Source: Pseudomonadota bacterium
GTDB taxonomy: Bacteria > Desulfobacterota > Binatia > UBA9968
DNA: 64,000 nt
Assembly (NCBI GenBank): GCA_021324155.1
Contig: JAJPJQ010000038.1
Coordinates: 83,904 to 147,903 of the forward strand
Direction of reading: 5' to 3'
The notes under the pieces are model-generated. The model was not told the origin of the DNA, did no database searches, and worked only from the letters and a program-made list of their open reading frames with translations. Positions within the stretch are counted from its first letter, which is position 1. Each line of letters opens with the position of its first letter. The translations under genes were made by a program, and so were the position numbers. Below, one piece after another: positions 851-12,390 of the stretch.

Positions 851-2046
851 TCAAGAGAGTCGAAGTTCAGTACCGCGGGATATTTCAAAAGAATCTCGCG
901 AAAAAAATCGGCAGCGACATCGTCATGATCGCGAGCAGCATGGGCCAGCGGGCATTTTCCAACGGCCGCTACAGCGACGCGCCCGAGCGCAACGGCATCC
1001 CGTGCAAATACTTCGCGTTCGTCTCGCCCGATTTATCCGAGGAGGAACTGGAAGCGGAGTGCGGCGCCAAGCTCGAGATCGACGAGGCGAACGTCTCGGT
1101 CGTGCTCGACGACACGATGTGCAAAGGCGTCGAGCCCTGGGGCTGGCACGGCGTGCGCCCGATCAACGAGCGCGTCGTCAAAGACGGCTGCCTCGTCGTG
1201 ATCACCAAGCGCCCGCACGAGGAGCTGCTCCAGTTCATCGGCAAGAAACCTTACAATTACCGCCTGGCGACGCTCGACGGCGAGGCGAGCCTCGCGGGCC
1301 TGTGGGTCAACAAGGACGATCTCACGTACGAGCACGTGCTCGGAGCGATCGCGGCGGTCGAGCCCACGATCATCAGCATCGAAGCGGTCGAAGCCTATCT
1401 GATGAAGAAGACGAAGGATAAGAAACGCGCCGAGGCGGCGCGCGCCGCCTACAACTCGCTGCGCCAGGAGGCCAAGCCGCCGCGCGTGAAGACCGTCACG
1501 CCGAATGAAGGGATCGTATGGACGCACGAGATCCCGGTGCTGCCGAAATGGTTCGAGATGCAAGAGGGCGCCGTCGTCCCGGCCGTCCCGCGCGGCTTCC
1601 AGATGGGGCCGAAGGGCCAGTCGAGAAACACGGGCTTCAAGCGCGGCACGACCAAGACGCAGCGTCCTGCGGTGCGCTTCGACCTCTGCACCAAATGCAC
1701 GCTCTGCTGGGCGGAGTGCCCCGACGAATGCTTCGACCCGACCACCGACGGCTATTACGATATCGAATATCAGTACTGCGTCGGCTGCGGCAAATGCGCC
1801 GAGGTCTGCCCGGTCAAGGAATGCATCGTCATGGTCGACGAGCTCCAGTTCCACGACAACAACAGTCCGTGGGAAGATTGGAAGAAAGACCCCAAGACAT
1901 ACATCACTTCGCTTGAGGCCAAAAAAGGCACAGAGCGCGTCAACTATCCCGTGGTCACCGGCAAAGGCGTTATCGTGACTAAGGGGGAAGTGATGCCCGA
2001 AGGTAAGATCGTTCCGGTCCGCAAGACCGAGGAGGTGGAAGTATGA
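847..2046 (+). CDS. 2-oxoacid:ferredoxin oxidoreductase gamma subunit fused to delta (2x[4Fe-4S] ferredoxin) subunit
   Basis: 399 aa. N-terminal POR/KOR gamma-like domain. C-terminal CTKCTLCWAECP...CVGCGKCAEVCP double CxxCxxCxxxCP ferredoxin motifs. ATGA overlaps with flanking genes. Confidence 0.8.
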   Translation: MIKRVEVQYRGIFQKNLAKKIGSDIVMIASSMGQRAFSNGRYSDAPERNGIPCKYFAFVSPDLSEEELEAECGAKLEIDEANVSVVLDDTMCKGVEPWGWHGVRPINERVVKDGCLVVITKRPHEELLQFIGKKPYNYRLATLDGEASLAGLWVNKDDLTYEHVLGAIAAVEPTIISIEAVEAYLMKKTKDKKRAEAARAAYNSLRQEAKPPRVKTVTPNEGIVWTHEIPVLPKWFEMQEGAVVPAVPRGFQMGPKGQSRNTGFKRGTTKTQRPAVRFDLCTKCTLCWAECPDECFDPTTDGYYDIEYQYCVGCGKCAEVCPVKECIVMVDELQFHDNNSPWEDWKKDPKTYITSLEAKKGTERVNYPVVTGKGVIVTKGEVMPEGKIVPVRKTEEVEV

Positions 2047-3284
2047 CCGTCACAATGGAAAAACCTAAAAGCGGCATGAGCGACGGCGTCTACGAGCGCG
2101 AGGAGCTGCTCAATGGCTGTCAGGCGGTCGCGCAGGGCGTGTGCCTCGCCGACGTCGACGTGATCGCGGCCTACCCGATCCGGCCCTACACCGAGGTCAT
2201 GGACGCGCTCTCGAAGCTGATCGCCGACGGCGCGTTCGACGCCGAGTACATCATCGCCGACAGCGAGCACTCGCAGTTCGAGATTGTCAAGCATGCCTCC
2301 TCGGTCAACGCGCGCGCCTTCGGCGGCTCGAGCGGCACCGGCTGGATGTACGGCATGGAGGCGCTCACCGTTACGGCGACCGACCGCCTGCCGCCGATGT
2401 TCGTCGTCGGCAACCGCGCGCTCGACGATCCCGGCGCGTTCGGCGTCGAGCACAACGACGCGATGGCGGTGCGCGATCTCGGCTGGCTGCTCTGCTGGGT
2501 CACGACGCCGCAGGAAGCCCTCGAGCACGTGCTGATCGGCTACCGCGTCGCCGAGGACAAGAACGTGCGCATGCCGATGGCGCTCGCTATCGACGGCGCG
2601 TTCCTCACCCATTCGCAGCACATCGTGAAGATTCCCTCGGTCGCGGCGGCGAAGAAGTTCCTGCCGCAATACGACCTCGCCGAGCGCCGGCTCCATCCCG
2701 ACAACCCGATCTCGGTCGCCCCGCAGGCGAACGAGGATTGGGTCATGGAGATCCGCCGCCAGAACTGGGAGGCCGCCAAGCGCGCCCGCGGGGTCATCAA
2801 GGAAGCCTACAAGGAATTCAACGCGATCTTCGGCGAGCGCTACGCGCAGCCCTACTTCGACGAGTACATGACCGACGACGCCGAGACCGTGTTGATCGGC
2901 GTCGGCACCGTCGCGGCGCCGGGCCGCACCGCGGTCAAGCGGCTCCGCGAAAAGGGCCACAAGGTCGGCTACGTGAACCTCCGCTGGTTCCGCCCCTTCC
3001 CGACCGAAGAGCTGCGCGCGTGTCTCAGCCGCTTTAAATCGGTCGGCGTCGTCGACCGCGACTTCGCCCACGGCTCGCCCGACAACTGCGGCATCCTGAT
3101 GCACGAGATCCGCTCGTGTCTCTATCCCGCGAAGAACCGTCCCGCGATCGTGAACTTCATCGGCGGCCTCGGCGGGCGCGATCTTTCGATCGCCGACGCG
3201 CAGAAGATGTTCGACATCACGGCGCAGGCGGCGAAGAAAGACTCGATGGACGGGTATATTACCTGGATCGGCCTCAGAGAGTAG
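2043..3284 (+). CDS. 2-oxoacid:ferredoxin oxidoreductase alpha subunit
   Basis: 413 aa. The N-terminal region resembles POR/KOR/VOR alpha subunits. Operon context with gamma-delta and beta genes. Confidence 0.85.
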   Translation: MTVTMEKPKSGMSDGVYEREELLNGCQAVAQGVCLADVDVIAAYPIRPYTEVMDALSKLIADGAFDAEYIIADSEHSQFEIVKHASSVNARAFGGSSGTGWMYGMEALTVTATDRLPPMFVVGNRALDDPGAFGVEHNDAMAVRDLGWLLCWVTTPQEALEHVLIGYRVAEDKNVRMPMALAIDGAFLTHSQHIVKIPSVAAAKKFLPQYDLAERRLHPDNPISVAPQANEDWVMEIRRQNWEAAKRARGVIKEAYKEFNAIFGERYAQPYFDEYMTDDAETVLIGVGTVAAPGRTAVKRLREKGHKVGYVNLRWFRPFPTEELRACLSRFKSVGVVDRDFAHGSPDNCGILMHEIRSCLYPAKNRPAIVNFIGGLGGRDLSIADAQKMFDITAQAAKKDSMDGYITWIGLRE

Positions 3285-3298
3285 TGTAAGGAGGACTT

Positions 3299-4294
3299 AT
3301 GACAACCACTCCAAAAATCGATTACGAAAAGATCAAAGGCGTCCACAAGGTCCCGCTGGAAGAGCTCTACACCTCCGGCCACCGCACCTGCCAGGGCTGC
3401 GAGTCCGCGACGACCATGCGGGGCTTCATCAAGGCCTCGGGACCGCGCACGATCGTAACCGGCGCGACCGGCTGCATGTACGTCGCCAATACTTCGTACC
3501 TGACCACGCCGTGGATCGTGCCGTGGATGCACACCCAGCTCGGTGCGGGCGGGGCGTCCGCGGTCGGCATGGCGGCGGGCGTCCGCGCGCTCCAGCGCAA
3601 GGGCAAGATCAAGCAGGAGAAGATTAACATCATCAACTTCTCCGGCGATCTCGGCGCGGGCGACATGGGCATCGGCGGAATCTCGGGCGCGCTCCAGAGC
3701 GACTACGACCTGCTGATCATCATGTACGACAACGAGTCGGCGGCGAACACCGATATCCAGGCGACCGGACTCTCGATCTACGGCGCGCAGACGACGTTCA
3801 CGCCGCCCGGATCGAAGCACCGCATCATGCAGCGGCGCTGGAAGAAGAACGTCGCCGGCATGCTCGCGGTCGGCCACCCGACTTGCAAGTACGTCGCCAC
3901 CGCCTGCGCGACGTTTCCGCCGACCGACTATCTCAACAAGACGCGCAAGGCGCTCAGCATCGGCGGGCCGACGTTTATCCATACGTACGATCCATGCCCG
4001 AAGGGCTGGGACTATCACCCGCGCTATTCGAACGAGCTGGGCGAACTGGGCATCAAGTGCGGCATCTACCCGCTCTACGAGATCGTCGAAGGCAACGTCA
4101 TTTACACCTGGGACGCGCGGAAATCGGGCAAGGGCCGCATTCCGGTGAAGGAGTTCCTGCAGCGCCAGGGACGCTTCGAGCATCTGATCCAAGAGGACAT
4201 CGATTATATCCAGAAGGGCGTCGACGAGATGTGGGAAGAGTGGGAAATTCCCGGCGTCGCGCCGCTCAAGGGGATTTTGAAAGCCAGAATCTAG
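3299..4294 (+). CDS. 2-oxoacid:ferredoxin oxidoreductase beta subunit (TPP-binding)
   Basis: 331 aa. The motif GDLGAGDMGIGGIS is of the TPP/Mg-binding GDG type, and the N-terminal Cys cluster (CQGCESATT) is typical of OFOR beta. RBS TAAGGAGGA upstream. Confidence 0.85.
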   Translation: MTTTPKIDYEKIKGVHKVPLEELYTSGHRTCQGCESATTMRGFIKASGPRTIVTGATGCMYVANTSYLTTPWIVPWMHTQLGAGGASAVGMAAGVRALQRKGKIKQEKINIINFSGDLGAGDMGIGGISGALQSDYDLLIIMYDNESAANTDIQATGLSIYGAQTTFTPPGSKHRIMQRRWKKNVAGMLAVGHPTCKYVATACATFPPTDYLNKTRKALSIGGPTFIHTYDPCPKGWDYHPRYSNELGELGIKCGIYPLYEIVEGNVIYTWDARKSGKGRIPVKEFLQRQGRFEHLIQEDIDYIQKGVDEMWEEWEIPGVAPLKGILKARI

Positions 4295-4352: not shown

Positions 4353-4547
4353 GCCTGCACCTTGGTCACAAGGCGTTAGGGCAAATGTGACCTATTGACT
4401 TACGATTAAGGTAAAGATTCCCGTCGAATCCGTGTAACACCCGATACTCGTTAAAACGCGCGCCACTGTATTATAGCCGCTATTCACCGGCCGGGTCTGC
4501 CCCCAGACGCTCCACCGGCCAACGACATCAACGGGGTAAGGAGCGCC

Positions 4548-6344
4548 ATGAACTACTTCCAACCCTATTCCCTTCCGGCCGATCAGGCGGTCCTCGCCGC
4601 GTGGGATTCGCAGCTCGCGGAGCTGGCGGAATGTCCGGCGCTCGTCACCGCGCTGGCGAAGCACCGCGAGATGCTCCCGCGCTTCGCGGAATCTTACATG
4701 AGACTCCGCGCGCTGCCGCGCGGCACGCGGCGGGCGCTGCAAAGAAAGCTCGCACGAGCGCGCGAGTTAATTTCAATTCAACCGGAGTGGCAGAGAAAGC
4801 TCGCCGGCTCACTCGCCGGCGCGGCGCTACTGCTCGCGCTCGCGCAGAGCGCGTCCGCGACGACGATGACCGTCACGACGAATGTGCCGGACATCAAAAG
4901 AGACAAGAAATGTTCACTGATCGAAGCGATTATCAATGCAAAGAAGCATAGGCGAGTTCACACCGACTGTCCCGCCGGGAGCGGAACAGACACGATTGTG
5001 CTTCCCGGCAATACGGTTTTCACATTCAACAAGATGGAACCCAGTTACATTCAAAGCTACAACGGTTTACCGACTGTCACCAGCATCATCACGATCGAAG
5101 GGAACGGCAGCACGCTCAGAAGAAATAGCAAATCGCAATTTGGCCTCGTCGATGTGAATAGCACTGGAAATTTAACGCTTAAGAATCTGACGATAAGTAA
5201 TTGGCAAGATCAGAATTTCAGCGCGATAACGAACCGCGGAAAACTGACAATCGTCAGTAGTACTATCTCCGGCAACATGGGATATGAAGGCGGCGCGATA
5301 TACAACTCATCCGGCGCCATTGCGGCGATCGAGAATAGCACAATTTCTGGCAACAGTGCCCGTCGTGGTGGAGGGATTCATAATTACCGCGGTACCATAA
5401 TCATAAACAACAGCTCAATTTCCCAAAACACAGCGGCATTTTCAGGCGGAGGCATAAGGAATGTCGGCGGTCACGCCGAAATCAATAACAGCATTATAAG
5501 CGAGAATCGCGCAATAGCACCGAAATATTACTCCGGCCATGGGGGTGGTATCGACAATATCGGTACCGCTGCGTATCTGCTTATCACATACAGTTCAATT
5601 GCTGAGAATCTCGCCAGTGGAGGCATCAGAAGTACGAATAAATATCGGCCGAGGCCAGCTGGTGAAGGCGGCGGAATATACAATGGCTTCCGATCGACCG
5701 TGACGATCAGCAATAGCTCAATCTTTAGCAATACCGCGGAGACCCCAGTCAACGGCTACATTGCGAGGGGCGGTGGGATACTTAGTAGTGCCGGTGGAGA
5801 TCTGCGCATTTCAAATTCTACGGTATCCGGAAACACTGCGATCAGCGGTGTCCCGGCAAAAGCTTACGGCGGCGGGATTTTCAGCTGCGTTTTTCAAATT
5901 ACGAGCAGCACAATTGCGGACAACAGAGCAAATGTTGGCGGCGGAATCTGGAGTTGTGAAAGTTCTTCACGCCTAGAGTTAGCCCGCAGTATTATTTCCG
6001 GAAATCAAGCTGACAAGGGAGCCGAGGTCCATAACGGCTTCTCTAGTTCGTCGAAACAACACCTTGCCGTAAACAATTTTAATCTGTTTGGAAACAATGG
6101 CGATCCCGGCGTTGTAGGTGTTACTCCAGGAGCATCCGACATCGTGCCCGGCTCCGGGATAATGCTCGATGACATCATTGCGCCGCTCGCAGACAACGGC
6201 GGCCCCACTCTAACGCATGCTCTTGCGGCCGGCAGCCTCGCCATCGATGCCGCGCCGGTCGACTCCGATTGTCCAGCTACCGATCAGCGCGCAACACCGC
6301 GACCGCAAGGCGGCGGCTGCGATATCGGTGCGTTTGAGAAGTAG
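4548..6344 (+). CDS. Surface/secreted right-handed parallel beta-helix repeat protein with CSLREA-type motif and C-terminal choice-of-anchor-Q-like domain. It carries an unusual ~85-aa N-terminal domain followed by a hydrophobic segment (paralog 1)
   Basis: 598 aa. RBS AAGGAG. Segments in order: N-domain (MNYFQPYSLPADQAVLAAWDSQLAEL...), hydrophobic LAGSLAGAALLLALAQSASA, CSLIEAI (CSLREA-like) motif, many NSTISGN/NSSISxN beta-helix repeats, and a C-terminal LADNGGPTLTHAL...CPATDQRATPRPQGGGCDIGAFE tail. Confidence 0.8.
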   Translation: MNYFQPYSLPADQAVLAAWDSQLAELAECPALVTALAKHREMLPRFAESYMRLRALPRGTRRALQRKLARARELISIQPEWQRKLAGSLAGAALLLALAQSASATTMTVTTNVPDIKRDKKCSLIEAIINAKKHRRVHTDCPAGSGTDTIVLPGNTVFTFNKMEPSYIQSYNGLPTVTSIITIEGNGSTLRRNSKSQFGLVDVNSTGNLTLKNLTISNWQDQNFSAITNRGKLTIVSSTISGNMGYEGGAIYNSSGAIAAIENSTISGNSARRGGGIHNYRGTIIINNSSISQNTAAFSGGGIRNVGGHAEINNSIISENRAIAPKYYSGHGGGIDNIGTAAYLLITYSSIAENLASGGIRSTNKYRPRPAGEGGGIYNGFRSTVTISNSSIFSNTAETPVNGYIARGGGILSSAGGDLRISNSTVSGNTAISGVPAKAYGGGIFSCVFQITSSTIADNRANVGGGIWSCESSSRLELARSIISGNQADKGAEVHNGFSSSSKQHLAVNNFNLFGNNGDPGVVGVTPGASDIVPGSGIMLDDIIAPLADNGGPTLTHALAAGSLAIDAAPVDSDCPATDQRATPRPQGGGCDIGAFEK

Positions 6345-6363
6345 CGTCCTGGGGGAGAGGGGT

Positions 6364-8457
6364 ATGTATTATCACAGTGCTTATCGACTGCCTGCCGGCG
6401 AGACAATTATTACAGCCTGGGAATCGGCACTAGCTGACCTGCGAAACAGCGCGCCGTCTTTAAATCTGCCGGCTGAAACACCTGATGTCTTTCCTCGGTT
6501 CGCTCAAACCTATGTAAAACTATGCAACTTACCTCGAAAAAAGCGAAGAGAGATCCAAAGGGATATTCTCCATACCGGACCGTTGGCAAAAATCCAACTC
6601 AAATCACAACGTCAACTTGCATCATCTTTGGCGGCAGTCGCTCTATTGCTTGCTTTAGCTCAACCCGCCCCCGCAGCAAACATTGCCGTCAATACGAACA
6701 CACCCGCAATTAATGATGGAGACGGTAAATGTTCGCTCATCGAGGCAATCATTAATGCCAACGACGATGCCTCGACTCATCCCGATTGCGCAAAGGGCGA
6801 AGGAGCGGATGTCATTGTATTGCCCGCTGCGAGTATACACGTCGTCGAAGCTGCTTACGGCAATTATCAGGGTGAAACCGCGCTGCCGGTGATAACGAGC
6901 GAGATTACTATCGAGGGGAATAACAGCACGGTGACCCGCCACGTGAGCGAGCCATTGTTTCGTATTTTAGCTGTGCGTAGTGTCGGAAGACTTACACTAC
7001 AAAATTTAACGGTAAGCGGCGGAGCTCAAAACCATGGCGGCGGGATATTCAACAGTGGCACGCTAGCGATTACTAACAGCATTATCACAGGGAACAAAGC
7101 ACAGTATTTTGGTGGAGGTATATTCAATTCCTCCGACGGAGAATTGACAATTGAGACTAGCAGCCTGTCCAAGAATATCGCCAACATGGATGGTGGCGGT
7201 CTATTGGACTGTTACGGTAGTTTCAAGATACAGAACAGTACTATCTCAGGTAACTTCAGTCAGCGTGGTGGCGGCATCCATAAGTTTGATAATCAAATAG
7301 AATACGTCACCCCCACATCTAACTTCCCAAAGTGCAGCGTAACCTCGCACACGGGACTGATTGTTAACAGCACAATTTACGGCAATACCTCATCCGTCGG
7401 CGGCGGCATAGCCAATGGTGGCAAAATAACCATCATCAACAGCACAATCAGCAATAATGTAGCGCTGGCGCAAGGCGGCGGAATCATAAATTATAAACCC
7501 TTCCAAGGTGCTCCCAGTTATCTTTTCGTAGAAAGCAGCACGATTTCTCAGAACATTGCCGGTGACGAGCATTTCGGCTGGGGTGGCGGCATTATGAATC
7601 AATACAATGGCTATCTTTATCTAAGCCGCAGCATCGTCTCAGGTAACAAGGCGCTCACAGGGCCAGAAATAAAAACGGCTAGTGTGAACGATGTTGTTTA
7701 TATCGATGATTTTAATCTTCTTGGAAATAACGGCGACAGCGGACTGTACAATGTATATGTCGGCTACACGGATATTGTCCCTAAACAAAGCCTCAACAAA
7801 ATTCTCGGCCCCCTCAAAAATAACGGCGGCCCTACACTGACTCATGCTTTAGTTCCTGGCAGCCCCGCGTTGGACGCTGCGCCGGTCGATGCGAACTGCC
7901 CGGCGACCGATGGCCGCGGTGTTGCCCGCCCGCAAGGGTCTGCATGCGATATGGGCGCCGTTGAGGGTACTAGTTTGGCACCGGCGCCCCACCCGACCGG
8001 GCACAACTTCGTCGTAAGCTCCGTCAAGGCGCCGAAAACCATCAAGAACGGCGGCGGCACTGCTCCCGTAGCGGTCACGATTCGGAACGCAGGCAATCAA
8101 AACGAGATACTGAGCGATGCGTCCGTGCTCGGCGACGGCGCGACCACGGGCCTCGTCCGCCTGGCGATCGACGTCACCGATACCGACGGCGAGCAATGCC
8201 AGCCTGCGACTGTCTCTTTAGACGGCTCCAAGAATGGGAAGCTCTTCAGCAAGGGAGTGAAGGTCTTGTCCGGCGGCGCATCGTTGACGGTGAATTTTCT
8301 CGTGACGTACCGTTGCGACGCGCCGATGAACAAGCGAAATCCGGAAGCGGGCGACTACCGTAACAGCGCCTCGATATTTCCCGACGAGCTCGACGGCATT
8401 TCCGATTCTAACGCGAGCAGCACAATGGTCGGCGCCGCGACCAAGGTGACGCCATGA
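6364..8457 (+). CDS. Beta-helix / CSLREA / choice-of-anchor-Q-like protein with an extra C-terminal CARDB-like Ig domain (paralog 2, diverged)
   Basis: 697 aa from an ATG with RBS GGGGAGAGGGG. It has the same architecture and a conserved N-domain (MYYHSAYRLPAGETIITAWESALADL...PRFAQTYVKL). An extra ~180-aa C-terminal tail (VSSVKAPKTIKNGGGTAPVAVTIRNAGN...) is CARDB-like. Confidence 0.75.
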   Translation: MYYHSAYRLPAGETIITAWESALADLRNSAPSLNLPAETPDVFPRFAQTYVKLCNLPRKKRREIQRDILHTGPLAKIQLKSQRQLASSLAAVALLLALAQPAPAANIAVNTNTPAINDGDGKCSLIEAIINANDDASTHPDCAKGEGADVIVLPAASIHVVEAAYGNYQGETALPVITSEITIEGNNSTVTRHVSEPLFRILAVRSVGRLTLQNLTVSGGAQNHGGGIFNSGTLAITNSIITGNKAQYFGGGIFNSSDGELTIETSSLSKNIANMDGGGLLDCYGSFKIQNSTISGNFSQRGGGIHKFDNQIEYVTPTSNFPKCSVTSHTGLIVNSTIYGNTSSVGGGIANGGKITIINSTISNNVALAQGGGIINYKPFQGAPSYLFVESSTISQNIAGDEHFGWGGGIMNQYNGYLYLSRSIVSGNKALTGPEIKTASVNDVVYIDDFNLLGNNGDSGLYNVYVGYTDIVPKQSLNKILGPLKNNGGPTLTHALVPGSPALDAAPVDANCPATDGRGVARPQGSACDMGAVEGTSLAPAPHPTGHNFVVSSVKAPKTIKNGGGTAPVAVTIRNAGNQNEILSDASVLGDGATTGLVRLAIDVTDTDGEQCQPATVSLDGSKNGKLFSKGVKVLSGGASLTVNFLVTYRCDAPMNKRNPEAGDYRNSASIFPDELDGISDSNASSTMVGAATKVTP

Positions 8458-10000
8458 ACTACTTCCAGCCCTACTCTCTTCCGGCCGATCAGGCGGTCCT
8501 CGCCGCGTGGGATTCGCAGCTCGCCGAGTTAGCGGACTGCCCTGCTTTCGTCAATGCCCTCGCGAAGCAGCGCGAGTTGTTCCCGCGCTTCGCGGCGCAC
8601 CACGCGCGCCTGCGGGTGCTGCAGCGCGGCACGCGCAGAGCGCTGCAAAGAAAGCTCGGCGAGCGCATGAGCTGATTTCAATTCAACCTGAATCGCAGAG
8701 AAAGCTCGCCGGCTCACTCGCCGGCGCGGCGCTGCTCCTCGCGCTCGCGCAAAGCGCGAGCGCGGCGACAATCAACGTAACGACAAACATCCCCGACATC
8801 AACGACGGCGACGGCAAGTGCTCGCTGATCGAGGCGATCGTTAATGCGAACGACGACGCAGCGACGCATCCCGACTGCGTCACGGGAGACGGGGCGGACA
8901 CGATCGTGCTGCCGAAGAAAGCTAAATTCAATTTTTTCGTAGCAACGATAAAGACACCGATTACAATTCAGGGCAACGACAGTACCTTCGTTCGAACAAC
9001 ATTGACGGTAAACGCTTCGGGAGATTTCAACGTAGATGGGATCAGCGTACTAGGTGGCAAGCGTTGCTTTATAAACGTTGGCGTCCTGACGATCGAGAAC
9101 AGCAAAATTTCAGGCTGTGCATTTGCCAGCGCAGGTGCAGTTTTCAACGGAGGGACTGCCACTATTTCCAACAGTGTTATTTCAGGAAACAAAGCGTATG
9201 GGAATGGCGAATATTCCTGGACAGGAACCGGCGGAGCAGCAATAAATAGCGGCACAATGACGATCCTGAACAGCGAGATATCCGACAACGCGGCGTACGG
9301 GAATGATTTTGGCAGCGCCATTGGCGGCGGCATCGATAATCAGGCTGGTACTCTTATCATTCAAAATAGCACCATAGCTAGGAATCTGGCTATTTCCCAT
9401 TCTCATGATGCTATTGGCGGTGGCATAAGCAATTCGGGCCGTTCATATTTGAGTGTTCGAAACAGCACAATTTCAGGCAACGAAGTGTCCAGAGGGAAGA
9501 GCCGCGGCGGAGGTGTTAACAATTGGGGATATCTTCACGTAGAAAATAGCACGATTACTGGGAATTCAGCCTCTACAGGAGGCGGCGTCGTCAGTTTCAG
9601 TTACGGCCGACCGAACCTCGTCTACCTACGCGAGAATGTTTTCGCTAACAACGAAGCTATCGTTGGTCGGGAAATTTCTACAGATGCCGTAATACAATAC
9701 GATGTTCTGAATTTATTGGGTATTAACGGTGATTCAGGTGTCTACGGCTTCACGCCTGGACCAACCGACATAGTGCCAAACGTTGCGGTTAAGAAAATCC
9801 TTGCTTCCCTAAAAAATAACGGCGGCTCTACCCTCACCCACGCTCTCGTCAAGGGCAGCCCCGCCATCGATGCCGCTCCCGTCGATGCGAATTGTCCGGC
9901 AACCGATCAGCGCGGCGTGGCGCGGCCGCAGGGAGGCGGCTGCGACATCGGCGCGGTGGAGTACACGGGCAAAACCTCGAAGAAGAACAAGAATAATTAG
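8454..10000 (+). pseudogene. Third beta-helix/CSLREA paralog, disrupted by a frameshift between the N-terminal domain and the hydrophobic segment
   Basis: The ATG at 8454 overlaps the paralog-2 stop (ATGA). A 73-codon ORF (8454-8675) encodes an N-domain near-identical to paralog 1. The rest of the protein (ELISIQPESQRKLAGSLAGA...CDIGAVEYTG) continues in another frame, ORF 8507-10000. The region is 1 nt shorter than the paralog-1 counterpart between AAAGAAAGCTCG and ATTTCAATTCAACC. Confidence 0.6.
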
Positions 10001-10049: not shown

Positions 10050-10703
10050 GTGAAGCTACCTCTCTCTCTTATCCTTGCGGCATCCATCCTCTCACTGTTT
10101 GCCGCACCGCATGTTTTCGCCGAGCCGCGCTACACGGAAAAGCAGATCGAGATGTTCTCGTCGTACGTCGGTAAGACGTATTGGGTGACGGACGAGAAGA
10201 GCCAGCAGCCGACGTTCTACTCGGCGCCCAAGACCAACGCGCCGACGTTTCAACCGGCGGCCAAAGAGGGCTTCGAGATCAAAGAAGTCGTCGAGAAGAC
10301 GAGCGACAATCCGTTTTACCGCGTCGCCTTCACGTCCGGCAAGGAAGGTTTCATCCCGGTCACCGCCTTCATGGAGCGGCTCAACGGCGCGTTTACCGCG
10401 CTCGATCCCGAGCGCGACGCCAAGGCGAAGAGCGCGAAAGTGACCGCCGACGAGCAGAAGCGGCGCGACTATATCCGCCAGCAGAAGTGGCCCCAGCACG
10501 TCAAGGAAGCCGCGCTCAGGAAAGAGCCCGTCATCGGCATGAGCAAACAGGAGGCGACCGCGGTGCTGGGCAAGCCCAAAAACATCGTGCGGCTCAAAAG
10601 CGGCAACGCCGGCAGCGAGCTGATGGGGCGGCAGGAACAGTGGCTCTACGACAACGGCCAGACACTCACGTTCAACAACGGGATACTCGTCAGGATCCAG
10701 TAA
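10050..10703 (+). CDS. Hypothetical secreted protein (signal peptide; C-terminal small beta-domain possibly BamE/SmpA-OmlA-like)
   Basis: 217 aa. GTG start 4 nt after GAGG. Signal peptide MKLPLSLILAASILSLFAAPHVFA-E. No confident family assignment. Confidence 0.55.
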   Translation: MKLPLSLILAASILSLFAAPHVFAEPRYTEKQIEMFSSYVGKTYWVTDEKSQQPTFYSAPKTNAPTFQPAAKEGFEIKEVVEKTSDNPFYRVAFTSGKEGFIPVTAFMERLNGAFTALDPERDAKAKSAKVTADEQKRRDYIRQQKWPQHVKEAALRKEPVIGMSKQEATAVLGKPKNIVRLKSGNAGSELMGRQEQWLYDNGQTLTFNNGILVRIQ

Positions 10704-10866: not shown

Positions 10867-12390
10867 TTATCCGTGCCCGATCGCGGGCTCGATGGTCGGC
10901 GGCTGACCGCGCAGGCGTCGCCACCACGGCGTGATGATCGGCATGACGAAGAAGAAGATCGCGGCGAAGGTGATCGCGGCGGAGATCGGGCGCGAGAAGA
11001 AAATCCCCAGAGACCCCTGCGACATGATGAGGCTCTGACGGAGCGCGTTCTCGGCCAGGTCGCCGAGCACGAGCGCGAGCACGAGCGGCGCGAGCGGGTA
11101 ATCGAGCTTCTTGAACACGTAGCCGATCACGCCGAAGATCAGCATGTACCAGATGTCGATCATGCTGTTGTGCACGGCGTAGCTGCCGATCGCGCAGACG
11201 ACGACGATGAGCGGCGTCAAGACCGCGAACGGGATGCGCAGGATCGCCGCGAAGAACGGCACGAACGCGAGCACCATCAGGACGCCGATGATGTTGCCGG
11301 TGTACATGCTCGCGATCAGCCCCCAGACGAAGTCCGGCTTTTCCTTGAACAGCAGCGGGCCGGGCTGAAGCCCCCAGATGATCAGGCCGCCAAGCATGAC
11401 CGCCGCGGTCGGCGAGCCGGGTATGCCGAGCGTGATCATCGGCAGCATCGCCGCGATACCGGCGGAGTGCGCCGCAGTCTCCGGCGCGACCACGCCCTCC
11501 AGCTCGCCCTTGCCGAACTTCTCCGCATTCTTCGAGAAACGCTTCGCGAAGGCGTAGCTCATGAACGAGGCGGGCGTCGCGCCGCCGGGCTTGAAACCCA
11601 TCCAGAAGCCGATGAAGGCGCTGCGTACGAACGTGCGCCAGTAGCGCGGTAGGAGCTTCCAGGTATCGAGGACGACTTTCGGATTGATCTTCGTCTTGAC
11701 GCCCTGGAAGCTGAGGCCCTCCTCGACGCTCAGGAGAATCTCGCCGATGCCGAAGAGCCCGATGACCGCGACGATGAAATCGAAGCCCTTCATCAGGTCC
11801 GTGAAGCCGAAGGTGAGGCGGAGCTGCCCGGTGACGATGTCGAGGCCGACCGCCGCCAGGATGAAGCCGAGGACGATCGAGACGAGCGACTTGAGCGGAT
11901 TGCCGCCGCCCAGGCCGACGAAGCTCGAGAACGTGAGCAATTGGATCGCGAAGAACTCCGGCGGGCCGAAGCGCAGCGCGATCTCGGCCAGCAGCGGAGC
12001 GAACAGCGTAATGAGCACGATCGCGAAGAAGGCGCCGATGAAGGACGAAGTGAACGCGCCCGTGAGCGCCGGCCCGCCCTGCCCTTGCCGCGCCATCGGG
12101 TAGCCGTCAAACGTGGTCGCGACCGACCACGGCTCGCCGGGGATATTGAACAGGATCGAGGTGATCGCGCCCCCGAAGAGCGCGCCCCAATAAATCGAGG
12201 TCAACAGAATGATCGCCGACGTCGGCGGCATGGTAAACGTGACGGGCAGGAGGATCGCCACGCCGTTAGCGCCGCCGAGGCCGGGCAGCACGCCGATGAT
12301 GGTGCCGAGCGTGATGCCGACGACCGCGACGAACAGATTGAACGGCGTGATCGCGATGTGAAAACCCATCCAGAGGTTTTCAATGCCCAT
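10867..12390 (-). CDS. tctA: Tripartite tricarboxylate transporter large permease TctA
   Basis: 507 aa, polytopic, TctA family. Operon with tctB/tctC. Confidence 0.9.
   Translation of the reverse strand: MGIENLWMGFHIAITPFNLFVAVVGITLGTIIGVLPGLGGANGVAILLPVTFTMPPTSAIILLTSIYWGALFGGAITSILFNIPGEPWSVATTFDGYPMARQGQGGPALTGAFTSSFIGAFFAIVLITLFAPLLAEIALRFGPPEFFAIQLLTFSSFVGLGGGNPLKSLVSIVLGFILAAVGLDIVTGQLRLTFGFTDLMKGFDFIVAVIGLFGIGEILLSVEEGLSFQGVKTKINPKVVLDTWKLLPRYWRTFVRSAFIGFWMGFKPGGATPASFMSYAFAKRFSKNAEKFGKGELEGVVAPETAAHSAGIAAMLPMITLGIPGSPTAAVMLGGLIIWGLQPGPLLFKEKPDFVWGLIASMYTGNIIGVLMVLAFVPFFAAILRIPFAVLTPLIVVVCAIGSYAVHNSMIDIWYMLIFGVIGYVFKKLDYPLAPLVLALVLGDLAENALRQSLIMSQGSLGIFFSRPISAAITFAAIFFFVMPIITPWWRRLRGQPPTIEPAIGHG

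Follow-up and report, generated by a model that had tools for sequence, protein, structure and literature searches.

A conserved N-terminal domain and arginine motif precede a signal-peptide-like segment in an array of RbtA-like beta-helix proteins from a Binatia bacterium

Background

Signal peptides are usually viewed as short, fast-evolving and interchangeable. Proteins with an extended signal peptide region (ESPR) are often glycosylated in the cytoplasm, and their extension is believed to delay export or to divide it into stages; the bacterial autotransporter heptosyltransferases (BAHTs) are heptosyltransferases that act on serine and threonine residues of beta-helix passengers (PMC8151025). 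In FecR, according to PMC12036975, which cites PMC7148137, Arg-79 and Arg-80 follow a cytoplasmic N-terminal domain and drive insertion dependent on twin-arginine translocation (Tat); an N-terminal fragment of FecR is freed by RseP (PMC12036975). Here we describe a leader of about 104 residues, encoded in a tandem array of genes for beta-helix proteins resembling rhombotarget A (RbtA). The array (P1, P2 and P3) lies within a 64,000-nucleotide stretch, hereafter the window (positions 83,904 to 147,903 of contig JAJPJQ010000038.1, assembly GCA_021324155.1, class Binatia), in which position 1 is the first letter. Related loci and proteins carry numbers preceded by L and P. The leader combines a predicted helical N-terminal domain (N-domain), an arginine helix, a linker and a signal-peptide-like end, and this bipartite leader, with its N-domain and arginine motif, is previously undescribed. 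We consider the chances about even that it acts as a cytoplasmic hold-back or docking extension in front of a cleaved Sec signal.

Results

Anatomy of the leader

The leader was dissected in an alignment of 75 sequences (A2) and in AlphaFold2 (AF2) models. Residues 1-50 have a net charge of -2 to -3 (-3 in P1, whose numbering is used here) and residues 51-84, immediately before the hydrophobic segment, one of +8 to +9. The preliminary description of this DNA had called for a structural prediction of the leader, and AF2 indeed places helices at residues 10-26, 30-38, 42-55, 58-70, 79-86 and 89-105, with a predicted local distance difference test (pLDDT) of 72 when the leader is modelled alone and of 76-94, averaged over blocks of 10 residues, when the whole protein is modelled. 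The basic helix contains an arginine motif (Table 1) for which 248 distinct instances were collected: Arg-58 is present in 247, Arg-61 and Arg-62 in 245 each, lysine never replaces them, and Gln-65 is kept in 234. Since the three positions hold Arg and never Lys, and since the following hydrophobic region (h-region) is at least 90% conserved, the motif suggests specific recognition and not bulk charge.

Linker length falls into three classes, of 5-8 residues (short forms, for instance PRRVRRSLQRKWKQSLAGVALLL), 21-25 residues (P1 and P2) and 30-34 residues. Long forms have, right before the h-region, a second and degenerating copy of RRALQRKLA (QRKLA, GRALQRKLA or RRLQHRMA), which implies an internal duplication, located in P1 at residues 56-88 (4713-4811). 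The distal copy of the arginine pair is invariant and the copy proximal to the h-region decays.

Both the h-region SLAG-x-ALLLAL and the -1 alanine column are at least 90% conserved in A2. The P1 segment reads QRK-LAGSLAGAALLLALA-QSASA/T, with the slash at the predicted cleavage site; its hydrophobic core is about 15 residues long, and the best 15-residue Kyte-Doolittle window scores 2.0-2.1 in close relatives and 1.7-2.3 across relatives. Small residues occupy positions -3 and -1 of a site lying 5-7 residues past the core in all 107 members, with Ala at -1 in 104, A, V, S, G or T at -3 in 105, and a variable -2. The segment thus combines the basic n-region, the h-region of 7-15 residues and the small -3 and -1 residues of Sec-type signals. 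Because a core of about 15 residues and this -3/-1 pattern are typical of signal peptidase I substrates, it looks like a cleavable Sec-type signal peptide and not like a permanent type II anchor.

Translation, selection and distribution of the N-domain

Several observations show that, as the preliminary description had argued, the DNA of the N-domain is no 5' untranslated region but is translated, and that purifying selection acts on it. Strong Shine-Dalgarno sequences (GGAGG, AAGGAG or GGGAGG) stand 5-8 nt 5' of the "MNYF..." start in about 15 unrelated loci. The ratio of nonsynonymous to synonymous substitution rates (dN/dS) of the N-domain is 0.11-0.21, as estimated from P1, P3 and their orthologs in L004 (GCA_009772335.1) and L006, another metagenome-assembled genome (MAG). 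When 1.84 billion representative proteins were searched exhaustively with a profile, the N-domain was retrieved from 338 clusters at E <= 1e-3, of which 88 reach E <= 1e-10 and 4 reach E <= 1e-30; this also bears out its expected conservation beyond this genome. The match starts at residue 1 in almost all clusters and nearly always covers residues 1-84. In P1, no in-frame ATG, GTG or TTG occurs from M51 to the h-region.

A word-indexed protein search returned seven close relatives for the P1 N-domain and none for that of P2. With a hand-made degenerate DNA pattern, back-translated from the motif, 110 metagenome loci were collected, of which at least 93 encode the N-domain. Named sources are MAGs of Candidatus Binatia and of Gammaproteobacteria, the hosts being uncultured soil bacteria. 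Whether the N-domain also occurs on other passengers or as a stand-alone protein, a question raised in the preliminary description, has a uniform answer: every match long enough to judge is joined to a passenger with a CSLxEA motif, a beta-helix and a choice-of-anchor Q domain. C-terminal additions vary among these relatives and include RTX, TSP3 or FG-GAP repeats. The reading frame runs unbroken from N-domain to passenger in P1, in P2 and in most of the full-length relatives listed.

Searches of the N-domain against Pfam, NCBIfam and PDB sequences gave nothing significant. Among PDB sequences, the leader profile came closest to 5VWL, the cytoplasmic tail of HIV-1 gp41 (E = 0.16, P1 residues 18-68). 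There, AYRAIRHIPRRIRQGLERI of gp41, which belongs to an Arg-rich amphipathic helix at the membrane surface, is aligned with sYaqLraLPRgaRRalqrk. This match probably reflects convergence of Arg-rich amphipathic helices; by analogy, it hints that the Arg helix may sit on the inner leaflet.

The passenger

All three proteins possess the CSLIEA motif, beta-helix repeats and the h-region, and all exceed the 25-bit cut-off of the choice-of-anchor Q model NF041518 (P1 77.8, P2 85.8 and P3 84.3 bits). The CSLREA label of the preliminary description was right as to the motif and failed as to the family, since none of the three matches TIGR04214 (cut-off 25 bits) at E <= 0.1; the relative P0128 reaches 15.2 bits against it. 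The rhombotarget A model TIGR04212 scores about 30 bits, far under its cut-off of 295, and over the N-terminal third only. A right-handed parallel beta-helix is recognised by PF13229 in P3 (27.3 bits, cut-off 25.9). For full-length P1, AF2 gave a pLDDT of 86 and a predicted template modelling score (pTM) of 0.79, with stacked short strands at pLDDT 90-99, and the best Foldseek match in the PDB was rhombotarget A (9CDU/9CDV, E = 2e-6), further matches including AlgE4 and tailspikes.

P1 ends in ...CDIGAFEK, one residue past choice-of-anchor Q, and carries no C-terminal anchor. No GlyGly-CTERM sorting signal was found in P1, and a hydrophobic segment at the C-terminus is missing from P2 and P3. 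The surface location given to the proteins in the preliminary description is putative. Paired cysteines are present at both ends of the passenger, which suggests periplasmic disulfides.

A recurrent upstream gene

Clustering of open reading frames (ORFs) across about 100 loci revealed a sole recurrent neighbour that is not a paralog, a protein of about 780-820 aa. It combines DUF4915/TIGR03032 (E = 1e-124 to 1e-132), three to four OGT-like tetratricopeptide repeats (TPRs) and a C-terminal domain with a weak match to Glyco_transf_9 (E ~ 1e-3; hereafter GT9-like), and it has neither a signal peptide nor a transmembrane segment. The gene was found in 23 of about 115 loci, and directly upstream in half of the "MNYF" arrays with at least 700 bp of upstream sequence (8/16). 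At 12 loci it lies directly 5' of an N-domain gene on the same strand, its match ending between about 40 bp inside that gene and about 170 bp upstream of it, and four more loci (L014, L033, L058 and L067) have DUF4915-only versions at the same position. It stands inside the arrays of L007 and L047. Other recurrent ORF clusters were rejected, as they came from about ten near-identical false-positive contigs or were antisense ORFs. The literature searched contained no mention of DUF4915 or TIGR03032.

Organisation of the array

The features of the array, together with the loci in which the recurrent gene was mapped, are collected in Table 1. Consistent with the preliminary description, three same-strand paralogs occupy positions 4548-10000, and the second and third are joined by an ATGA (8454-8457) in which the P2 stop overlaps the third N-domain ATG. 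Their proposed common architecture stands for the beta-helix, the choice-of-anchor Q domain (78-86 bits), the h-region and CSLIEA; it does not stand for the N-domain, which had been credited to all three and which in P3 is out of frame, its ORF being ended after 73 aa by a 1-bp deletion.

Table 1. Positions of the array genes, their parts and the recurrent upstream gene. Coordinates without a locus number are those of the window.
Feature	Position	Strand	Remarks
Shine-Dalgarno AAGGAG	4538..4543	+	4 nt 5' of P1 ATG; read from sequence
P1, intact, 598 aa	4548..6344	+	N-domain, RR helix, linker, signal-peptide-like h/c region, RbtA-like beta-helix, choice-of-anchor Q
P1 N-domain core, residues 1-57	4548..4718	+	predicted acidic three-helix bundle; conserved A18, W19, F46, Y50, L53
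P1 basic helix, residues 56-70	4713..4757	+	invariant L-P-R-x-x-R-R-x-L-Q-R (residues 56-66); AF2 helix 58-70
P1 linker, residues 71-84	4758..4799	+	missing in short-form relatives; ends in degenerate QRKLA copy
P1 h/c region, residues 85-104 (LAGSLAGAALLLALAQSASA)	4800..4859	+	predicted signal peptidase I site after SASA
P1 choice-of-anchor Q, residues 544-597	6177..6338	+	NF041518, E = 5e-22, 77.8 bits
Shine-Dalgarno-like GGGGGAGAGGGG	6351..6362	+	before P2 ATG; read from sequence
P2, intact paralog, 697 aa	6364..8457	+	divergent N-domain; motif LPRKKRREIQR
P2 h/c region	6616-6675	+	
P2 choice-of-anchor Q	7801-7965	+	
P3 N-domain ORF, 73 aa	8454..8675	+	ATG overlaps P2 stop; ended by frameshift, TGA 8673-8675
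P3 1-bp deletion site	8658..8660	+	parts N-domain from passenger frame
P3 signal peptide and passenger, shifted frame	8672..10000	+	h/c region 8705-8764, beta-helix, choice-of-anchor Q
DUF4915-TPR-GT9-like gene	L012:1692-4154	-	
DUF4915-TPR-GT9-like gene	L007:4201-6534	+	
DUF4915-TPR-GT9-like gene upstream of N-domain genes	L013, L030, L045, L057, L068, L072, L088, L090, L107, L113, L116		

Identity between the paralogs differs by region: 37-83% in the N-domain, 75-100% in the h/c region, about 41% in the beta-helix core and 64-81% in choice-of-anchor Q. The divergent N-domain of P2 is retained, as had been noticed before, and aligns with that of P1 over 84 aa without a gap (37% identity, BLASTP E = 2e-18). 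A longer P2 ORF starting at 6217, given by the mechanical ORF list, was discarded as spurious, GGGGGAGAGGGG preceding the ATG at 6364.

After its choice-of-anchor Q domain, P2 continues in a C-terminal extension of about 160 aa (7966-8454, residues ~535-697; HNFVVSSVKAPK...ATKVTP), which is kept in L004 and L006 and has no Pfam or NCBIfam match. The G+C content is about 0.63 in the leader-coding 5' ends (4501-5000 and 8501-9000) versus 0.47-0.51 in the beta-helix cores, a fall that likely results from repeats rich in Asn, Ser, Thr and Ile.

The P3 frameshift and turnover of the array

Alignment of the DNA of the three 5' ends locates the P3 deletion relative to P1 (ctcgCAcgagc to ctcgG-cgagc, ~8658-8660). 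The passenger frame remains open for about 1.3 kb, with no canonical start codon near the h-region; a 497-aa ORF starting from GTG 8507 was rejected as it reads the N-domain DNA out of frame. The frameshift is real and not an assembly error of the window, because five contigs, drawn from three or more assemblies (GCA_037025705.1, ERZ27279688 and ERZ23500680 among them), carry the identical 73-aa ORF (P0005).

The TGA at 8673-8675 overlaps CTG 8672-8674 and ATT 8675-8677 of the passenger frame. Reinitiation at CTG 8672 or ATT 8675 would yield a normal 31-residue signal peptide, so that P3 is possibly a natural split variant and not a dead gene. Programmed -1 frameshifting was rejected, no canonical slippery heptamer being present at the CAAAGAAAG site, and decay is more likely than programmed frameshifting because a related genome retains only a 70-aa remnant there. 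A GC hairpin, AGCTCGCACGAGCGCGCGAGTT then AATTTCAATT (4747-4768, + strand), falls within the linker-coding DNA of P1 and coincides with the site of the P3 deletion; terminator-like matches number 13 in all, this one included, with 8.7 expected by chance.

At the syntenic site, L004 has a single gene of 724 aa (7815-9989) that unites a P1-like N-domain and a P2-like C-terminal extension, followed at the position of the third gene by the 70-aa N-domain remnant (L004:10001-10213). L006 likewise has a single gene, of 697 aa (6001-8094). Chimeric single genes with a P1-like leader and a P2-like C-terminal extension thus occur in related MAGs, and remnants of arrays are represented by P0007 and P0047, the latter a metagenomic protein in which the N-domain is joined straight to the last residues of choice-of-anchor Q (...GCDIGAVEK). 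Given the mosaic regional identities, the remnants and the chimeric genes, the array appears to have been reshaped by recombination, its conserved 5' and 3' ends serving as the sites of exchange, and this history suggests that P3 either lost its frame recently or is a split variant that arose in the turnover.

Several relatives (P0185, P0179, P0201, P0220, P0045 and P0162) are frameshifted a few residues past the predicted cleavage site, ATITVTTN being read as HNHRHDKQS. Such frameshifted relatives are many and lie on long contigs; they could reflect frequent pseudogenisation, phase variation or indel errors of long reads.

Flanking genes and regulatory signals

Directly 3' of the array, positions 10050-10703 (+ strand) encode a protein of 217 aa whose signal peptide is of the ordinary kind (MKLPLSLILAASILSLFAAPHVFA); L004 and L006 have it at the syntenic place, with 224 and 219 aa respectively, and no precomputed Pfam family is on record for it. 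On one flank (2043-4294) stand genes resembling 2-oxoacid:ferredoxin oxidoreductase (POR_N, TPP_enzyme_C), preceded by genes for GntR and a 4Fe-4S protein, and on the other (10867-12390) a TctABC tricarboxylate transporter operon. The annotation of these flanks suggests that neither points to a functional link with the array. An Rfam search for riboswitches or leader RNAs upstream of the genes and within the N-domain DNA gave no match below E = 0.39, and promoter and terminator scans stayed at chance level.

Discussion

A hold-back or docking extension

The explanation that we prefer, and to which we give roughly equal chances of being right or wrong, is that the N-domain would fold and remain in the cytoplasm while the hydrophobic segment would insert with its N-terminus inside. 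The RbtA-like beta-helix passenger would then cross the inner membrane via Sec, and signal peptidase I would cut after the AxA site, freeing it. The N-domain and Arg helix would form a family-specific module for holding back or docking the passenger before or during export, comparable in role to the autotransporter ESPR. For many relatives, the leader would probably work with the cytoplasmic DUF4915-TPR-glycosyltransferase-like protein encoded directly upstream, keeping or presenting the passenger in the cytoplasm for this enzyme, by analogy with HMW1C/HMW1, Aah/AIDA-I and TibC/TibA. At the gene level, the array would turn over by recombination at its conserved 5' and 3' ends.

Several points weigh against this explanation. 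The DUF4915-TPR-GT gene was not found in the 64-kb window and is rare beside the short forms, which means that it cannot explain the N-domain in every case. Its glycosyltransferase assignment is weak, and the passengers show no excess of NX[ST] sequons over shuffled sequences. The docking analogy is weakened because ESPR proteins can be glycosylated without the ESPR and even without their whole signal peptide (PMC8151025). The cleavage, the topology and the route of export proposed here are predictions from sequence, and the extreme conservation of the h-region and of the Arg-only motif would fit a function of the cleaved leader or a specialised translocase as well.

A further proposal, in which the N-domain and Arg helix, as a module that docks and holds back the protein in the cytoplasm, couple Sec export of the RbtA-like beta-helix to a dedicated cytoplasmic modifying enzyme, the DUF4915/TIGR03032-TPR-GT9-like protein of many relatives, and the leader fragment might in addition signal after cleavage, is tentative and in our estimate rather doubtful.

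Alternative explanations

The preliminary description had suggested a type II membrane topology with a cytoplasmic tail. The hydrophobic segment would then be an uncleaved signal-anchor, a permanent transmembrane helix tethering the beta-helix outside the inner membrane, and the N-domain a tail for signalling or anchoring, as in anti-sigma or ToxR-like proteins. Part of this proposal stands, for a cytoplasmic N-domain is the natural reading of a folded domain followed by a basic stretch of +8 to +9, which suits an N-in topology. It also gains from the lack of a C-terminal anchor in P1, though choice-of-anchor domains usually adjoin one, from an h-region as conserved as in a specific transmembrane helix, and from two relatives with faint matches to an anti-sigma model (E = 0.006-0.04, 14-17 bits against a cut-off of 100). 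The stable anchor itself is disfavoured by the core of about 15 residues, short for a stable transmembrane helix, and by the AxA-type -3/-1 site with variable -2 in 107/107 members; moreover, no sigma factor or other regulator adjoins the genes in any locus examined, and no match to anti-sigma or FecR N-terminal families was obtained. We therefore regard the anchor as unlikely. The other possibilities named in the preliminary description, a dedicated leader or a domain coupling to a partner, fit better than an anchor, and the idea of a partner gains some ground from the recurrent upstream gene of related loci, which the window lacks.

A second alternative is an internal Tat signal of the FecR type, in which the N-domain folds in the cytoplasm and the arginine pair and h-region send a folded beta-helix to TatABC. 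As in Tat motifs, the pair is nearly invariant and never KK, in short forms it lies 5-8 residues before the h-region (as in PRRVRRSLQRKWKQSLAGVALLL), and FecR with Arg-79/Arg-80 offers a precedent (PMC12036975, citing PMC7148137). An S/T-R-R-x-F-L-K-like motif directly before a weakly hydrophobic h-region is absent from P1 and P2, the short forms coming closer (5-8 aa). The pair is 22 residues from the h-region in P1 and P2 and as many as 34 residues from it in relatives, while the copy of the motif next to the h-region has degenerated to QRK, and position RR+3 carries Gln, not a hydrophobic residue, in 234/248 instances. The h-region is rich in Leu and Ala and the c-region has no basic residue, features that are Sec-like by the usual contrast between Sec and Tat signals. 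No Tat-named family stood among the Pfam and NCBIfam matches listed for 14 proteins (E <= 0.05-0.1), the paired passenger cysteines suggest periplasmic disulfides, and hhalign gave the N-domain a probability of 0.2% against FecR. A canonical Tat signal is thus unlikely in the window proteins, and we rate a FecR-type variant as distinctly improbable.

We put on the same low footing a leader that is active after cleavage, in which a fragment of about 104 aa with its N-terminus inside would persist, or be freed by intramembrane proteolysis, and report secretion to a cytoplasmic target. Conservation of the h-region and Arg helix far beyond the needs of targeting, and the compact predicted fold of the N-domain, speak in its favour. 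A precedent exists in viruses and eukaryotes, where long signal peptides serve further functions once targeting is done. The release of the FecR fragment by RseP is another (PMC12036975). There is, against it, no identifiable target, no DNA-binding or sigma-binding homology and no linked regulator gene. This possibility is compatible with, and not exclusive of, the hold-back or docking extension.

Last, an annotation artefact, with the true start lying internally, immediately 5' of the hydrophobic segment, and the "domain" ahead of it being untranslated or a separate small gene, is hardly credible and for P1 and P2 already contradicted: the P3 N-domain is indeed a separate 73-aa ORF and an in-frame TTG in P2 would give a normal signal peptide (MAKIQLKSQRQLASS...), but P1 lacks any in-frame start codon between M51 and the h-region, strong Shine-Dalgarno sequences precede the N-domain Met and not an internal one, the frame is continuous in P1, P2 and most full-length relatives listed, and dN/dS is 0.11-0.21.

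Implications

A leader of about 104 residues with a folded domain, an Arg-only motif and a hydrophobic core conserved in sequence, tied to one type of passenger, is unusual. Its conservation across hundreds of clusters with that single passenger type implies that export has a regulated step and that the leader has a specific partner, in the cytoplasm or in the membrane. If the coupling to a modifying enzyme is true, it would represent a system of secretion-coupled protein modification that does not belong to type V secretion and whose defining mark is a new class of structured extensions of signal peptides. Should the link to DUF4915/TIGR03032 hold, it would provide a first functional context for a widespread domain of unknown function, extend the theme of ESPR, HMW1C and BAHTs beyond autotransporters, and give a testable handle on the staged export of aggregation-prone beta-helices. 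The N-domain merits a family model in any case, as such genes are now annotated with wrong starts or as hypothetical fragments.

Comparison with known systems

The passenger is closest to RbtA (TIGR04212; 9CDU/9CDV), with which it shares the fold, partial TIGR04212 matches, CSLIEA and choice-of-anchor Q. RbtA has an ordinary signal peptide and GlyGly-CTERM, whereas the window proteins have a long leader and no C-terminal sorting signal. The pairs HMW1/HMW1C, AIDA-I/Aah and TibA/TibC each associate a beta-helix exoprotein bearing a long signal peptide with an adjacent cytoplasmic glycosyltransferase, and relatives of the window genes have the upstream DUF4915-TPR-GT9-like gene. Unlike HMW1C, Aah and TibC, the putative glycosyltransferase here is a weak Glyco_transf_9 match with OGT-like TPRs, encoded in related loci and not in the window.

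As in FecR, a folded cytoplasmic N-domain of about 60-80 residues would be followed by an arginine pair, one hydrophobic segment and an exported C-terminal domain (PMC12036975). Homology was rejected, hhalign giving a probability of 0.2% and no FecR or DUF4880 matches being found. FecR systems also differ in their surroundings, since the window genes have no adjacent extracytoplasmic function (ECF) sigma factor or TonB-dependent receptor; no ECF sigma gene was present among the called neighbours of L001, L002, L004, L008 and L009, nor among the recurrent neighbours of about 100 loci. In addition, the window arginine pair is 22 aa from the h-region, and a signal-peptidase-type site follows that region.

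With the ESPR, the leader has in common a conserved N-terminal extension placed before a canonical cleavable Sec signal peptide and found on beta-helical passengers only. The ESPR is about 25 residues long and unstructured, while the extension in the window leader has 60-85 residues, a predicted helical fold and an Arg-only motif. The ESPR belongs to type V systems; the hosts of the window leader are Binatia and uncultured Gammaproteobacteria, PF13018 (ESPR) was not among the Pfam matches for 14 proteins, and no autotransporter barrel, TpsB partner or two-partner secretion (TPS) domain was found in the proteins or their neighbours. The window leader is thus analogous, and not homologous, to the ESPR and to the internal twin-arginine signal of FecR, the ESPR being the closest concept and FecR the closest architecture.

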